Part shown: positions 28,929 through 34,079 of the stretch, one piece after another
Layout: each line of letters starts with the position of its first letter
Numbering within the stretch: the stretch's first letter is position 1
From: Escherichia coli
GTDB taxonomy: Bacteria > Pseudomonadota > Gammaproteobacteria > Enterobacterales > Enterobacteriaceae
Reading direction: 5' to 3' (one strand)
Assembly: GCF_041886205.1 (NCBI RefSeq)
Contig: NZ_CP169029.1
Length of the DNA stretch: 64,000 nt
The notes under the pieces: model-generated
Told to the model about the DNA's origin: nothing
The model's database searches: none
The model's input: only the letters and a program-made list of their open reading frames with translations
Position numbers and translations under genes: made by a program

Positions 28929-28992
28929 GCACCGTACTATAGCTGCTTTGGTTATTGTCAGCCTTTGGCACTGACATTCAGGGATGAAACCA

Positions 28993-29811
28993 ATGCAGCT
29001 AAGAATCACCAGTCGAAAAAAACTCACCGCTTTATTATGCGCTCTTGGGCTAATTTCCATCGTTGCGATTCATCCGCGTCAGACGGTGAATTTTTTCTAT
29101 TCGACAGCAATTCAGATTAAAGACTACATCCACTTCTACGGTTATCGCCCGGTTAAATCTTTCGCTATTCGCATTCCTGCCAGTTACACCATTCACGGAA
29201 TAGATGTTTCGCGCTGGCAGGAACGGATCGACTGGCAGCGGGTGGCAAAAATGCGCGATAACGGTATTCGCTTACAATTTGCCTTTCTTAAGGCGACGGA
29301 AGGCGAAAAGCTGGTGGACCCCTATTTTTCGCGTAACTGGCAACTAAGCCGCGAAAATGGCCTGCTGCGCGGGGCGTATCATTATTTTTCCCCGTCGGTA
29401 TCCGCTTCAGTTCAGGCGAGATTATTTCTGCAAACGGTGGATTTCTCACAAGGCGATTTCCCTGCCGTACTGGACGTAGAAGAACGGGGAAAATTATCGG
29501 CAAAAGAATTACGCAAGCGGGTAAGTCAGTGGCTAAAAATGGTAGAAAAACGCACGGGAAAAAAGCCGATTATTTACTCAGGAGCCGTTTTTTATCACAC
29601 GAATCTGGCGGGCTATTTTAATGAATATCCGTGGTGGGTGGCTCACTATTATCAACGTCGTCCGGACAATGACGGAATGGCCTGGCGCTTCTGGCAGCAT
29701 TCCGACCGTGGACAGGTAGATGGCATCAATGGTCCGGTGGATTTTAATGTGTTTAATGGCACGGTGGAGGAGTTGCAGACATTCGTTGATGGGATTAAAG
29801 AAACGCCTTAA
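28993..29811 (+). CDS. yegX: GH25-family muramidase-like protein with an N-terminal membrane anchor
   Basis: ORF 28984..29811 (alternative ATG at 28984). A hydrophobic N-terminus (LTALLCALGLISIVAI) is followed by GIDVSRWQERIDW and AVLDVEE, which resemble GH25 lysozyme catalytic motifs. Confidence 0.85.
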   Translation: MQLRITSRKKLTALLCALGLISIVAIHPRQTVNFFYSTAIQIKDYIHFYGYRPVKSFAIRIPASYTIHGIDVSRWQERIDWQRVAKMRDNGIRLQFAFLKATEGEKLVDPYFSRNWQLSRENGLLRGAYHYFSPSVSASVQARLFLQTVDFSQGDFPAVLDVEERGKLSAKELRKRVSQWLKMVEKRTGKKPIIYSGAVFYHTNLAGYFNEYPWWVAHYYQRRPDNDGMAWRFWQHSDRGQVDGINGPVDFNVFNGTVEELQTFVDGIKETP

Positions 29812-29862: not shown

Positions 29863-30609
29863 ATGGAACAAGCGCATACCCAGCTGATTGCCCAACTGAA
29901 CGAGCGTATTTTAGCGGCGGATAACACGCCGCTTTATATTAAGTTTGCCGAAACGGTAAAAAATGCCGTGCGCAGCGGGGTGCTGGAGCATGGCAATATT
30001 TTGCCCGGTGAGCGTGATTTAAGTCAGTTAACCGGCGTTTCGCGCATTACGGTGCGCAAGGCGATGCAGGCGCTGGAAGAAGAGGGTGTGGTGACGCGTT
30101 CGCGCGGTTACGGCACGCAGATCAACAACATCTTCGAATACTCGTTGAAAGAAGCGCGAGGTTTTTCTCAGCAGGTGGTATTGCGCGGGAAAAAGCCCGA
30201 TACGCTATGGGTTAACAAGCGTGTCGTGAAATGTCCCGAAGAAGTCGCGCAGCAGCTGGCGGTCGAAGCAGGAAGTGATGTCTTTTTGCTTAAGCGTATT
30301 CGCTATGTCGATGAAGAAGCGGTATCGATTGAGGAATCGTGGGTTCCGGCGCATTTAATTCATGATGTTGATGCCATCGGGATTTCACTTTATGACTATT
30401 TCCGCAGCCAGCACATTTACCCACAACGTACGCGTTCCCGCGTTAGCGCCCGGATGCCGGATGCCGAGTTTCAGTCACATATTCAGTTAGATAGCAAAAT
30501 ACCGGTGCTGGTGATCAAGCAAGTGGCGCTTGACCAACAGCAACGGCCTATTGAGTACAGCATTAGCCACTGTCGCAGCGATCTATACGTTTTTGTGTGC
30601 GAGGAGTAG
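29863..30609 (+). CDS. yegW: GntR/HutC-family transcriptional regulator
   Basis: 248 aa. It has an N-terminal winged HTH (LPGERDLSQLTGVSRITVRKAMQALEEEGVV) and a UTRA-like C-terminal half. Confidence 0.9.
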   Translation: MEQAHTQLIAQLNERILAADNTPLYIKFAETVKNAVRSGVLEHGNILPGERDLSQLTGVSRITVRKAMQALEEEGVVTRSRGYGTQINNIFEYSLKEARGFSQQVVLRGKKPDTLWVNKRVVKCPEEVAQQLAVEAGSDVFLLKRIRYVDEEAVSIEESWVPAHLIHDVDAIGISLYDYFRSQHIYPQRTRSRVSARMPDAEFQSHIQLDSKIPVLVIKQVALDQQQRPIEYSISHCRSDLYVFVCEE

Positions 30610-31548
30610 TTCCTCGCGCGTTGGCGCACAATCACCGCCCCGATGCCCGACAACCCACGACGCCACTGCATTGCCCAGTAATACGGCATCCGCCAGTGGC
30701 AGACCAGAGGCCAGCCCGGCAAGTACGCCACCGGCATGACTGTCGCCCGCCCCAATGGTGTCGACAACTTGCGTTGGAAATGCCGGAATGCAGCCAGAAG
30801 CGTCGTTGCTGAAATACCATGCGCCTTCTTTATCGAGACGAACGATCAACGGCGCGGCAAATTTCTCCTGCCATTGCTTGCCAAGTGTTGTTATCTCTGC
30901 GGATAAAGCAAAACGTTCGGCGGCAATCTCAGCCTCTTGACGATTGAGCGACACTAAAGGTCGACAGGCCATGATCCGCGCCAGTAATGCATCCGGGATA
31001 TCGCCAATACGTGGGCCAAAATCGATAAACGGCGTCACGTCTTGCAGCTCTTCCAGCCACTCCACTAACAATTCGCCGCAGGGCGAGGCCAGTTGATAAC
31101 CGGAAAAATAGAGCAGGCTGCCAGGCGCAACGGTTAATCGCGCCAGCCACTGGCGATTCCACTGATTTTCAACACCGCTGAATGACATAAAAGTGCGTTC
31201 GCCATCCGGCTCAACCAGCGCCAGACACCAGCCGTTATCACCTTCGGCGTTATCGATCAGGCTGATTAAGCCCTCTTTTGCCATCCGGTTGCGAATAATC
31301 TCCGCCCACACGCCCTGACCGAGCGGCAAGGCATTACCCGCTTCGATGCCGAGGCGCTTTAACGCCACGGCAATATTCAGTGCGCAGCCGCCAACGTTAA
31401 CGCTCTGCTGTTTCAGTTCGATATCGCACCCACGCCAGGGGAGGGCATAAGCGTCGGCGATCACATCAATGACCGCCGCGCCGACGACCATCACCGGCTG
31501 ACGCGAGGTTAATTCAGGCAGCAGCGTGTGTAATCGAGCGCCGCTCAT
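30583..31548 (-). CDS. yegV: PfkB-family carbohydrate/nucleoside kinase
   Basis: 321 aa. It has an N-terminal GG motif (VNVGGCALN) and a C-terminal DTIGAGDSHAGG motif. The start overlaps the yegU stop (ATGA). Confidence 0.9.
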   Translation of the reverse strand: MSGARLHTLLPELTSRQPVMVVGAAVIDVIADAYALPWRGCDIELKQQSVNVGGCALNIAVALKRLGIEAGNALPLGQGVWAEIIRNRMAKEGLISLIDNAEGDNGWCLALVEPDGERTFMSFSGVENQWNRQWLARLTVAPGSLLYFSGYQLASPCGELLVEWLEELQDVTPFIDFGPRIGDIPDALLARIMACRPLVSLNRQEAEIAAERFALSAEITTLGKQWQEKFAAPLIVRLDKEGAWYFSNDASGCIPAFPTQVVDTIGAGDSHAGGVLAGLASGLPLADAVLLGNAVASWVVGHRGGDCAPTREELLLAHKNV

Positions 31549-32549
31549 ACCGCCTCCCGTTGTTGACGATATTTCGCCAGCGCTGTGGCATAGCGGTTGA
31601 AATCAAGCTGATTTACCGCATCCAGTTCCGCCTTTAACGCAGGATCGATAGCGTTAACGCCATGCAACGCGCCGCAAATCGCCGTCGCCATAGCGCCGAT
31701 GGTGTCTGTGTCGCCGCCAAGGTTAGCGCACAGGACGGCGCAGCGATTCGGGTCGGTTTGTGCCAGTTCAACCAGCGCAATGGCGCACGGAACGGACTCA
31801 ATAGTGCTGGTACCTGCGCCAACGACCTGGTAAAGCTGTTCGCTGGCGGATTCGGTGCCGTCGGCATTGCGCACAATTTTCAGCGCAATCTCCAGACGTG
31901 CTGCCAGTGAGGCGCTGAAGGTAGTGATGCGTTTTTGCTGTGCATGTCGCGCAATTGAAGGCAGGGAATCAACAATCGCTGACCAGCTTTCTCCGTCAAT
32001 GGCACGAGAAATCGCCCATGCGATGACTACCGCACCTGCAACTGCCAGATCGGATTTATGGGTCGGGCTCGACGCCAGCGCCACATCATCAATAAAGGAA
32101 TCAACATCACGCGCCGGAAGCAAACAACCTAATGGCGAGACGCGCATCGCTGCGCCGTTGGTCACGCCGTTGTTTTCCAGTTCAGCAACGGGTTTACCGT
32201 CGCGAATGGCGTTAAGCGCAATCTTCGAGGTCGGACCTAGTACGTTTTTGTTAAAGGCGTCGAAACGCAGCGCCCAGTCGAGAATATTACGCCCAATCAG
32301 ATCCGGATCGATCTTGCCTTCACGTTCCAGTAACGCATCCGCCAGACACAGCGCCATCGAGGTATCGTCGGTGAATTCGGCGCGGTTAAAATAACAGGCC
32401 GCGTTATTCTCCTTTGGTCCAGGAAGAAAACGGTCAATCCAGCCAAAGTGTGCTTTAACGCGGCTGCGTGGCCAAAGCTCGGAGGGCATCCCCATCGCAT
32501 CCCCTAACGCCTGCCCATAAAGAGCACCGAGAATACGTTCTGTTTTCAT
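31545..32549 (-). CDS. yegU: ADP-ribosylglycohydrolase-family protein
   Basis: 334 aa. GALYGQALGDAMGMPSE, FTDDTSMAL and GGDTDTIGAM match the ARH/DraG metal-binding signatures. The start overlaps the yegT stop. Confidence 0.9.
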   Translation of the reverse strand: MKTERILGALYGQALGDAMGMPSELWPRSRVKAHFGWIDRFLPGPKENNAACYFNRAEFTDDTSMALCLADALLEREGKIDPDLIGRNILDWALRFDAFNKNVLGPTSKIALNAIRDGKPVAELENNGVTNGAAMRVSPLGCLLPARDVDSFIDDVALASSPTHKSDLAVAGAVVIAWAISRAIDGESWSAIVDSLPSIARHAQQKRITTFSASLAARLEIALKIVRNADGTESASEQLYQVVGAGTSTIESVPCAIALVELAQTDPNRCAVLCANLGGDTDTIGAMATAICGALHGVNAIDPALKAELDAVNQLDFNRYATALAKYRQQREAV

Positions 32550-33823
32550 TTAACTTCCCCTTGTGTCAACGCAATATCGCGATCATCGACCTTGATAGCC
32601 GTAATTTCGTTGTCGGATTCGCGGAAAAAAATCATGAACAGCACGGCGATAATGGCAATCATCACCGCGCCGAAAGTCCACATCCCGGACCAGTTGAAAG
32701 TCAGCCCGTTTACCGGTTCCGGATAAGCGAACATCTTTTCCATCATCACACCGCCAAGACGATAGCCGAGCAAACTGCCGAAGCCCTGGCAGCAGAGCGT
32801 GATCAGCCCCTGCGCGGCGGTACGCATATGCACGGGGGCTTTTTTATCGACATAGATGTAAGCGGTAACGTAGTAAAAATCGTAACTTACGCCGTGAAGC
32901 AAAATACCGAGGAACAGTAACGCGTAAGTGAAATATTCATCCGCACTACCGTAAATAAAGAAGCCATAGCGGATCGCAGCGGTGACCAGACCAAGCAATA
33001 ATACCTTTTTGATACCAAAGCGTTTAGTGAAAAACGGCAATGCCAGCATAAAGAAGATTTCAGAGAACTGGCCGAGCGTCATCCAGCCGGTGGCGTTTTT
33101 CATGCCAACTTCGGTCAGATAACCGTTGGCAAAGATGTAATAGAACGCCAGTGGCATCGCAAACAGGAATGAACAGAAGAAAAAGACGAGGAAGTTTTTA
33201 TCGCGCAGCAGGATCAGCGCATCCAGGCCGAGCATGACTTTAATGTCCATTTTGCCGGTGCTTTTTGGCGGCGTGTCGGGCAGGAAAAACGCAAACACAC
33301 CGAGCAGAGCAGAACTTCCGGCGGTAATCAGCAGCGGGATGTTAGTCGGTGAGATATCGGCATACCCCAGCATTTGCGGCAAGAAACCACATGCCAGACC
33401 AGAGGCAATCCAGCCGATAGTGCCCATCACACGAATGCGCGGGAAATCACGCTCCACATCCGGCACGTTGGCAAAAGCGATACTGTTAGTCAGCGCAATG
33501 GTCGGCATATAGGTTAGCGAGTAGGCCAGCAGTAACGGGAAGAACCCGGCAAAAGTGGTCTGTTGCGCAGCGAAATACATCAGCAGCGCGCCTGCGAACA
33601 TCAATACCGCCAGCACTTTTTGCGCCGAGAAAAAGCGGTCAGTGATGGAGCCAACCAGAATTGGCGACAGGATCGCCGCAATGGCTGTGCAGGCATACGA
33701 CCAGCCAATTTCTCCGGCACTAAAACCGCTTTTACTTAACCACAACCACAATGGCACAAACCACGCGCCCCAGATAAACCATTCAACAAACATCATGAAC
33801 GACAGCTTTGCTGTTGTTTTCAT
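32546..33823 (-). CDS. yegT: MFS nucleoside:H+ symporter-family transporter
   Basis: 425 aa, polytopic, resembling NupG/XapB. It is the first gene of the yegTUV unit. Confidence 0.9.
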   Translation of the reverse strand: MKTTAKLSFMMFVEWFIWGAWFVPLWLWLSKSGFSAGEIGWSYACTAIAAILSPILVGSITDRFFSAQKVLAVLMFAGALLMYFAAQQTTFAGFFPLLLAYSLTYMPTIALTNSIAFANVPDVERDFPRIRVMGTIGWIASGLACGFLPQMLGYADISPTNIPLLITAGSSALLGVFAFFLPDTPPKSTGKMDIKVMLGLDALILLRDKNFLVFFFCSFLFAMPLAFYYIFANGYLTEVGMKNATGWMTLGQFSEIFFMLALPFFTKRFGIKKVLLLGLVTAAIRYGFFIYGSADEYFTYALLFLGILLHGVSYDFYYVTAYIYVDKKAPVHMRTAAQGLITLCCQGFGSLLGYRLGGVMMEKMFAYPEPVNGLTFNWSGMWTFGAVMIAIIAVLFMIFFRESDNEITAIKVDDRDIALTQGEVK

Positions 33824-34079
33824 CTTTTAATTCCTTCATGACAGGTAATGTAAGGTACGCGATGACAATACCACTTAATAATACCTTTTAAATACCTTTG
33901 CGGTGAAAACTTGACCGCGCTAACATTTTTTCTGATGAATCGAGCCAACAGAAAACGCTGAAAAAACATCCAAAAGATGGAAAAACTCGCCCGTAACGAC
34001 CAGGATTATGATTGCCCGCAAAAGGCGGGCCAGGAAAATCCATAGCCGATATCCAATCGGAATTTACGGGAGCATAGTA

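Follow-up and report, generated by a model that had tools for sequence, protein, structure and literature searches.

Related systems and the yegTUV-yegW locus

In the pseudouridine pathway encoded by psuT, psuK and psuG (yeiM, yeiC and yeiN in E. coli), a dedicated nucleoside transporter is combined with a PfkB kinase and a glycosidase. The glycosidase, PsuG, cleaves a 5′-phosphorylated nucleoside to ribose-5-phosphate and the base, and in other organisms the kinase and the glycosidase are found as fusion proteins. A comparable set of genes, yegT, yegU and yegV, lies with the regulator gene yegW at positions 29,863 to 33,823 of the 64,000-nucleotide stretch of Escherichia coli DNA analysed here (contig NZ_CP169029.1; hereafter the window), and these four genes are the subject of this work. 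Their general role is probably riboside catabolism, where we infer the riboside nature of the substrate. The full ordered mechanism, in which yegTUV and yegW would form a substrate-inducible module for the uptake and catabolism of a non-canonical riboside, is put forward tentatively, as a reading whose chances fall a little short of even.

The yegTUV operon may work like the pseudouridine pathway, but it is not a member of it. PsuG has an IndA-like fold, whereas YegU has the ADP-ribosylglycohydrolase (ARH)/DraG fold with two metal sites; the psu transporter belongs to the CNT family, whereas YegT belongs to the NHS family; and a Pfam scan of the locus found no PsuG-type domain. ARH3, DraG and ARH1, as well as the orphan protein MJ1187, have in common with YegU their fold, a catalytic Glu and the Asp/Thr metal ligands, and the chemistry of YegU is probably the same, with a ribose bound through its 2,3-diol and the bond at its C1 hydrolysed. 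YegU nevertheless forms a clade apart from ARH3, DraG and ARH1, is closest to the uncharacterised MJ1187 and, by alignment, lacks the stacking aromatics of ARH3. Its context is also metabolic, with a transporter, a kinase and a UTRA repressor, whereas that of ARH3, DraG and ARH1 is a partner transferase or a target protein. The Bacteroides rus systems resemble yegTUV in joining ribokinases and a transporter to variable ribose-releasing enzymes, including ADP-ribosylglycohydrolases, but they have the architecture of a polysaccharide utilisation locus with SusC/D, use another regulator and are induced by ribose (Glowacki et al., bioRxiv 574913). In comparison, yegTUV belongs to a minimal four-gene cassette, and its kinase lacks the ribokinase Lys and Asn. 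The net reaction proposed here, from a ribotide to ribose-5-phosphate and a base, would be shared by the nucleoside-5′-monophosphate N-glycosidases Amn, PpnN, LOG and DNPH1, although their folds are unrelated to that of YegU.

By annotation, the 3.96-kb stretch is the E. coli yegT/yegU/yegV/yegW locus, with identities of 95-99.8%, and 5416 of 5426 complete genomes (~99.8%) carry it over its full length. The four open reading frames (ORFs) were all found where a first-pass annotation of the window had placed them. On the minus strand, yegT (32546..33823) encodes a 425-residue NupG-like MFS proton symporter of the NHS family, yegU (31545..32549) a 334-residue protein with the ARH/DraG fold and two metal sites that is predicted to be a cytoplasmic ribosyl glycohydrolase, and yegV (30583..31548) a 321-residue PfkB-family kinase predicted to be a riboside or ribose 5-kinase. 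On the plus strand, yegW (29863..30609), also named ggaR, encodes a 248-residue GntR/HutC-type repressor with a UTRA effector domain. These domain assignments, already made in the first-pass annotation for all four proteins (NupG-like, ARH/DraG, PfkB and HutC-type), are upheld by Pfam and NCBIfam. The two ATGA start/stop overlaps that it described within yegTUV are real, and each has a Shine-Dalgarno sequence ahead of it (GGGGAA for yegU, GGGAGG for yegV). Convergence of yegTUV on yegW is likewise borne out, and the coding ends of yegV and yegW even overlap tail to tail by 27 bp (30583..30609, no strand; from ORF coordinates and sequence). The two genes are among the excludons defined in an RNA-seq survey (PMC12288877). 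Given this overlap and the excludon listing, strong derepression of yegTUV could interfere with the expression of its own repressor, yegW.

The locus, the YegW regulator and the YegT structure are already known. The earlier view of the whole locus as uncharacterised is thus outdated, as the regulon and in vitro effector of YegW (PMC10819704) and the structure of YegT (PMC11979927) have been published. The narrower statement that no substrate is known holds for YegU, YegV and YegT but not for YegW, for which an effector in vitro was published in 2024. YegU, YegV and YegW do not reach any curated NCBIfam equivalog cut-off, and their specific functions are therefore not transferable by homology. 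yegTUV remains a conserved E. coli operon among those still without a function.

ARH-PfkB neighbourhoods in other bacteria

In all of 80 species-level genomes of Enterobacteriaceae and Pectobacterium, yegW, yegV, yegU and yegT occur together. The four-gene cassette sits between fbaB and thiDM in Enterobacteriaceae, while in Pectobacterium the cassette is kept and the flanking genes are changed; as the cassette alone is retained there, the four genes form a functional unit. A scan of genome contigs with single proteins gave only relatives of at least 81% identity, and distant contexts were reached by profile search, exact-protein look-ups and a metagenome scan, after which the neighbouring ORFs were clustered. 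In a full HMMER scan for distant relatives, 6972 cluster representatives had E values of 1e-3 or lower, and for 1730 of these E was below 1e-10. The non-redundant set used for counting comprises 30 ARH loci, grouped at 80% identity and with at least 2.5 kb of flank.

A PfkB kinase lies within three genes of the ARH gene in 25 of these 30 loci, and every PfkB ORF in the neighbour clustering shares the strand of the ARH gene. A GntR/UTRA regulator is found beside ARH in 16/30 loci and a transporter of any of three families in 24/30 (NCS1 in 15, PnuC-type in 6 and NHS in 3). While ARH, PfkB and GntR persist, the transporter is swapped among NHS, NCS1 (PF02133), PnuC (PF04973) and ECF, where the PnuC-type neighbours score above the NCBIfam PnuC cut-off and the ECF transporters occur in further cases. 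In addition, ARH and PfkB are fused in single proteins in both domain orders, the forms being PfkB-ARH of about 640 residues in Oscillospiraceae, ARH-PfkB of about 700 residues in Actinomycetaceae and ARH-PfkB-ARH of about 1000 residues. The known substrates of these transporter families are nucleosides, nucleobases and vitamin ribosides. Because the transporter families are non-orthologously replaced and the fusions occur in both orders, there is strong evidence, from gene content and domain order, that hydrolase and kinase act on one imported riboside-like compound. The first-pass idea of a transporter, a glycosidase and a kinase acting together on a nucleoside-like riboside is strongly supported by the PfkB adjacency, the fusions and the four-family transporter swap. 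The analysis of conserved neighbourhoods that accompanied this idea as a suggested check has thus been run over the 30 non-redundant loci, and the linkage of hydrolase, kinase, regulator and transporter was found. By comparison of genomes, the hydrolase, the kinase, the regulator and a transporter of the nucleoside/vitamin type are thus shown to be functionally linked. The ARH-PfkB pairing is widespread, extending over gut, soil and marine bacteria and including many fusion proteins. A literature search found no papers on ARH with PfkB and nucleoside, nor on ARH with PnuC.

Several of these loci carry further details. The fusions are located at L170 6001-9030, L169 6001-8115 and L168 6001-7923. 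In Actinomycetaceae-like contigs, a protein of about 1009 residues has the order ARH-(degenerate PfkB)-ARH and is followed by a separate intact PfkB gene and a Sugar_tr MFS gene, which suggests that the degenerate middle kinase domain has turned into a scaffold. At L171 6001-8777, a PfkB-ARH fusion overlaps by 4 nt the start of a gene for a classical inosine-uridine nucleoside hydrolase (IU_nuc_hydro, PF01156); next to it are genes for a divergent ABC sugar transporter and a second PfkB as well as a SIS gene. Judging by this context, the substrate may contain two glycosidic bonds, or a nucleoside may be broken down in successive steps. A purine-type phosphoribosyltransferase neighbours ARH in three loci. 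In three of the 30 loci (L085 3551-4339, L156 and L159), PfkB is replaced by an AIRS-domain ATP enzyme, a protein of 262-291 residues with a weak AIRS (PurM/ThiL-like) N-terminal domain, for which NCBIfam gave no match and which in L085 adjoins an ECF transporter; it may be a non-homologous replacement of the kinase.

Beyond PfkB, GntR and transporters, ORF clustering of the ARH neighbourhoods revealed no recurring aglycone-specific enzyme, which points to an ordinary metabolite as the released aglycone. PTS, TrmK, PfkA-like and YjeF-like neighbours formed clusters of two or three loci only and were judged incidental. A link to thiamine was considered on account of thiMD next door in enterics, TenA nearby in Lentilactobacillus and the NCS1/CytX-like transporters. 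It was rejected, as the Pectobacterium cassette occurs without thiMD and the thiamine pyrophosphate riboswitch in Lentilactobacillus (L081) lies directly ahead of TenA, past the end of the ARH operon; none of 24 loci has a riboswitch ahead of its ARH operon. Control by cobamide/B12 was also set aside, since no cobalamin riboswitch was found there either and UTRA-type substrate induction favours catabolism over vitamin homeostasis. In Morganella morganii (L082 1899-6771), a GntR-ARH-NCS1-PfkB cassette stands beside an apparent histidine decarboxylase cluster, recognised by Pfam families only (an amino-acid permease, a pyridoxal-dependent decarboxylase, a second permease and a HisRS-like gene). 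This adjacency is probably a coincidence, though ribosylated imidazole substrates are conceivable.

Residue patterns and the order of reactions

YegU matches ADP_ribosyl_GH (PF03747) with an E of 2e-66 and 224.9 bits against a cut-off of 26.2, over profile positions 1-285 of 287. Its AlphaFold2 model (predicted local distance difference test 97.5, predicted template modelling (TM) score 0.96) has the all-helical ARH fold. The best Foldseek match of the model is the orphan archaeal MJ1187 (PDB 1t5j, TM 0.81/0.90), followed by a Thermus ARH-related protein, ARH3 and DraG (TM 0.73-0.86 for ARH3 and DraG, probability 1.00), and a sequence search ranks the relatives in the same order. The metal-binding motifs that the first-pass annotation called intact are present as E24, T60-D61-D62-T63 and D280-T281-D282-T283, where E24, T60-D61-D62 and D280-D282-T283 align with ARH3 E41, T76-D77-D78 and D314-D316-T317, and across 34 family members the conservation of the catalytic Glu and the metal ligands is 85-100%. 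Two further residues, K109 and R218, are conserved within the YegU clade and are candidates for binding the phosphate. As it lacks a signal peptide, YegU must act on an imported compound.

An enzyme of this family could also be a protein de-ADP-ribosylase like DraG, Tri1 or ARH1, working as a regulatory switch or in toxin immunity, with neighbours that have nothing to do with it. Membership in Pfam ADP_ribosyl_GH, the intact active site and weak NCBIfam matches to DraG and Tri1 would all agree with such a role. However, these matches fall far under the equivalog cut-offs (79.5 against 337 bits for DraG, TIGR02662, and 69 against 490 for Tri1, NF041672), an ADP-ribosyltransferase partner is not present, and tight translational coupling ties YegU to transporter and kinase genes here, while elsewhere it is fused to PfkB. 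Moreover, the positions of ARH3 F143 and Y149, the adenine-stacking aromatics, align with N and V in YegU. We consider a de-ADP-ribosylase very improbable. The same substitution of the stacking aromatics by Asn and Val argues against ADP-ribose itself as the YegU substrate. A role in defence or toxin immunity was rejected separately, as none of the four proteins has a PADLOC match and there is no transferase partner.

YegV matches PfkB (PF00294; E 2.5e-56, 191.7 bits) and carries the features of that family, a G53-G54 dipeptide and the GAGD motif noted in the first-pass annotation, found at residues 266-269 with the catalytic Asp. It scores 82 bits against the ribokinase RbsK equivalog, which has a cut-off of 299.65, and 19 bits against the pseudouridine kinase model, which has a cut-off of 540. 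Relative to E. coli ribokinase, D16, G41-G42, N46 and D255 are kept as D28, G53-G54, N58 and D269, whereas N14, K43 and E143 are replaced by V26, C55 and A154. Ribokinases and nucleoside kinases have the kept residues in common. Those that are lost line the ribokinase ribose site, presumably near O1, and this pattern is what would be expected if C1 of the ribose bears a substituent. It extends to the ARH-linked homologues, as D28, G53-G54 and N58 are invariant in 70 of them and the catalytic D269 is nearly so. Among ARH-linked kinases, the K43 equivalent is never Lys (Cys in 55/71, Ser in 6/71, a gap in 10/71), and the N14 equivalent is always hydrophobic in 70.

If the substrate is a riboside, the residues of YegV and the analogy to PsuK and PsuG slightly favour an order in which the kinase would act before the hydrolase. 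The opposite order, in which YegU would free ribose and the aglycone and YegV, as a divergent ribokinase, would then phosphorylate the ribose, amounts to ribose scavenging and can be likened to the Bacteroides rus systems or to rihABC plus rbsK. Among solved structures and curated families, the nearest relatives of YegV are in fact ribokinases, the ribose-responsive rus loci of Bacteroidetes join ARH genes to ribokinases, and the gene fusions leave the order of steps unspecified. Some ARH-linked PfkBs also have Glu at the position of RbsK E143; this position is variable, with Glu in 12/42 homologues from loci whose ARH is less than 60% identical to YegU. Yet equivalents of ribokinase K43 and N14 are missing in all 70 ARH-linked kinases, and PMC12621476 lists K54, the counterpart of K43 in human ribokinase, as essential. 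E. coli, furthermore, already has RbsK. To our knowledge, all characterised ARH enzymes (ARH1, ARH3 and DraG) act on 5-phosphorylated ribose, and UTRA regulators such as NagR, TreR and FrlR typically respond to phosphorylated intermediates. Ribose scavenging by the opposite order is therefore regarded as rather unlikely, although it is a serious alternative to phosphorylation first.

YegT belongs with the nucleoside permeases, matching Nuc_H_symport (PF03825) with an E of 3e-183 and NCBIfam nucleoside permease TIGR00889 with 652.6 bits against a cut-off of 446.1. With NupG and XapB it shares the fold (root mean square deviation 1.57 Å to NupG), the GxxxD motif for protonation and, unchanged, the ribose ligands. 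The NupG residues that hold the ribose, R136, T140 and E264, are identical in YegT (PMC8042404), and the sequence in the window has them as R131, T135 and E255, together with the motif of transmembrane helix 10 (G311xxxD315). In the base pocket, however, YegT differs from NupG and XapB. The crystal structure, determined at 3.1 Å in 2025, shows that the uridine-contacting residues of NupG are not conserved, and by isothermal titration calorimetry YegT bound none of uridine, adenosine, cytidine and guanosine (PMC11979927). In transport assays, it took up no uridine, cytidine, xanthosine or gemcitabine (PMC11241209). Because the ribose ligands of NupG are kept but canonical nucleosides are neither bound nor transported, YegT looks like a riboside carrier with an altered aglycone pocket. 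The psuT/psuK/psuG-like logic that had been proposed for the operon from the first is further backed by this combination.

Taken as one pathway, the substrate would be a nucleoside-like compound whose ribosyl bond resists the ordinary nucleoside hydrolases and phosphorylases. YegT, as a NupG-like proton symporter with the ribose residues kept but a different base pocket, would import this riboside. YegV would then phosphorylate the 5-hydroxyl of its ribose, and YegU would cleave the bond at C1 of the ribose to give ribose-5-phosphate and an ordinary aglycone.

Regulation by YegW, glycogen and the flanking genes

YegW has the domain layout of the HutC subfamily, an N-terminal GntR winged helix (PF00392 at residues 29-87, E 3e-16) and a C-terminal UTRA domain (PF07702 at 108-242, E 2e-36). 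In this, and in repressing an adjacent catabolic operon, it is like NagR/DasR, TreR, FrlR and PhnF, whose operators are GGT/ACC-type repeats, as is the candidate YegW operator described below. It differs from these named repressors in that ADP-glucose is the only effective ligand of those tested and in that it falls below every NCBIfam equivalog cut-off. Under the name GgaR, the protein has been shown by chromatin immunoprecipitation on microarrays, electrophoretic mobility shift assays and Northern blotting to bind only upstream of and within yegT, which makes yegTUV the single target of this repressor (Saito et al. 2024, PMC10819704). The operon is one 3.3-kb transcript that GgaR represses about 30-fold (PMC10819704).

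The upstream region of yegT holds a candidate operator for this repressor (33844..33899, minus strand), made up of three direct GGTATT repeats and then inverted GGTAC/GGTAAT half-sites. In a phylogenetic footprint of 23 sequences from Enterobacteriaceae and Pectobacterium, AAAGGTATTTAAAAGGTATTA is nearly invariant and is followed by TGGTA-N11-GTACC (window about 33844-33899), and this footprint is kept in Pectobacterium although the remaining spacer diverges. The operator 21-mer has a single occurrence in the window, where 0.01 matches are expected by chance, and the candidate lies inside probe-2, which GgaR bound (PMC10819704). A candidate sigma-70 promoter of yegTUV (33878..33907, minus strand; -35 TTCACC, -10 TATTAT), found by a consensus scan only, falls within the 190-bp fragment bound by GgaR in vitro. 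The operator overlaps the best -10 candidate and extends toward the yegT start, an arrangement that fits repression by promoter occlusion. Within yegT, an AAGGTATT half-site (33000..33007, minus strand; nt 817-824 of the ORF) is a candidate weaker second YegW site. It falls in the yegT 571-869 fragment (probe-5), which GgaR bound at higher concentration (PMC10819704), though the motif is short and its statistics are weak, with 5 matches in the window against 1.7 expected.

In the footprint alignment, Escherichia has a 4-nt insertion at 33845-33860 (an extra TTAC; GTACCTTACATTACC as against GTACCTTACC). It sits between the putative operator's inverted half-sites on one side and the ribosome-binding site of yegT on the other, and alters the half-site spacing relative to all other genera aligned.

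The published work also offers another account of the operon, in which ADP-glucose is the signal for YegW, and YegTUV would raise glycogen by importing, making or sparing this compound. GgaR is freed in vitro from the yegT promoter by ADP-glucose at 10-100 µM, while ADP and glucose are without effect, and loss of yegW relieves the repression of yegTUV by about 30-fold and leaves about twice as much glycogen at 6 h (PMC10819704). Before that, the sole connection to ADP-glucose came from a screen of the Keio collection, in which a yegV deletion scored as glycogen-deficient on medium with ADP-glucose. ADP-glucose, ADP and glucose, however, are the whole effector panel, so that the effector screen suggested for YegW in the first-pass annotation has been carried out in part, and the authors themselves leave the function to later study (PMC10819704). 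Uptake of ADP-glucose, moreover, is ascribed in the literature to NupC and NupG and not to YegT. The ARH metal site holds the cis-2,3-diol of a ribofuranose and not a glucopyranose. The module recurs, in addition, with PnuC, NCS1, ECF, a nucleoside hydrolase or a purine phosphoribosyltransferase but never with glg genes, none of which was present in the ARH neighbourhoods examined. As the direct function of YegTUV, ADP-glucose metabolism is thus improbable.

An ADP-ribosylated or ADP-ribose-derived substrate, which the first-pass annotation had considered, is compatible with the release of YegW by ADP-glucose. As a conjecture with a small chance of being right, YegU-type enzymes may be small-molecule ARHs for bonds at ribose C1 that are beyond the reach of ordinary nucleoside enzymes, and yegTUV and its relatives a widespread bacterial salvage of ADP-ribosylation debris. 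The candidates would be the α(1′′-2′) ribose-ribose bond of ribosyl-adenosine and phosphoribosyl-AMP from (poly)ADP-ribose breakdown, while ribosyl-arginine and cobamide-derived α-ribosides are other α-riboside candidates at the same low level of confidence. Such a salvage role fits ARH3-like chemistry, the lack of recurring aglycone-specific genes and the co-operonic nucleoside hydrolase of L171; it also fits the purine phosphoribosyltransferase neighbours and a repressor on which an ADP-sugar acts, whereas neither ADP nor the sugar alone does.

In the riboside mechanism proposed above, YegW bound to GGTAT-type repeats over the promoter would repress the operon until freed by a phosphorylated ligand containing adenine or a sugar, which would probably be a pathway intermediate mimicked in vitro by ADP-glucose. 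Several points weigh against this mechanism. The activities of YegU and YegV and the substrate of YegT are predictions, and the order of the reactions rests on residue patterns and the PsuK/PsuG analogy. The phenotypes described are glycogen phenotypes only, and the riboside model explains both the extra glycogen of the yegW deletion and the deficiency of the yegV deletion indirectly; the effect could, as a speculation, be secondary, for example through adenine nucleotide pools controlling GlgC. In Bacteroidetes, the loci for ribose utilisation place ARH genes alongside ribokinases whose substrate is free ribose (Glowacki et al., bioRxiv 574913), and the E143 position of the ARH-linked kinases is variable, as given above. 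Finally, a riboswitch lies ahead of the ARH operon in 0/24 loci, and no other independent pointer to the substrate was found. If the mechanism is true, it would give the ARH fold its first metabolic, small-molecule catabolic role and would add a new nucleoside-type salvage route, which would be a further form of nucleoside catabolism and not a system of a new kind. It would also identify the real GgaR ligand and clarify why derepression of the operon shifts glycogen. The comparative data narrow the problem to a short list of enzyme assays.

The genes on either side of the cassette were also inspected. Between thiD and yegW lies yegX (28984-29811), which is GH25 muramidase-like (Pfam 2.7e-54) and occurs at this place only in Escherichia. 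Other genera, among them Citrobacter, Klebsiella and Enterobacter, have thiD directly abutting yegW, and yegX therefore looks like an insertion specific to its lineage. On the other side, the mechanically called fbaB ORF begins at ATG 34008 and encodes 374 aa, the first 24 codons overlapping an imperfect 17-nt inverted repeat (34003-34041). A further in-frame ATG lies at about 34080, which we take to be the annotated FbaB start. This downstream ATG is probably the true start of fbaB and would give a yegT-fbaB spacer of about 256 bp. In Shigella flexneri SFBU0723 (L066), the sequence is collinear with the window at 96.6% identity but shows 87 gaps per 10 kb, with most genes frameshifted, and the apparent loss of yegT there was attributed to an indel-rich assembly artefact and not to pseudogenisation.

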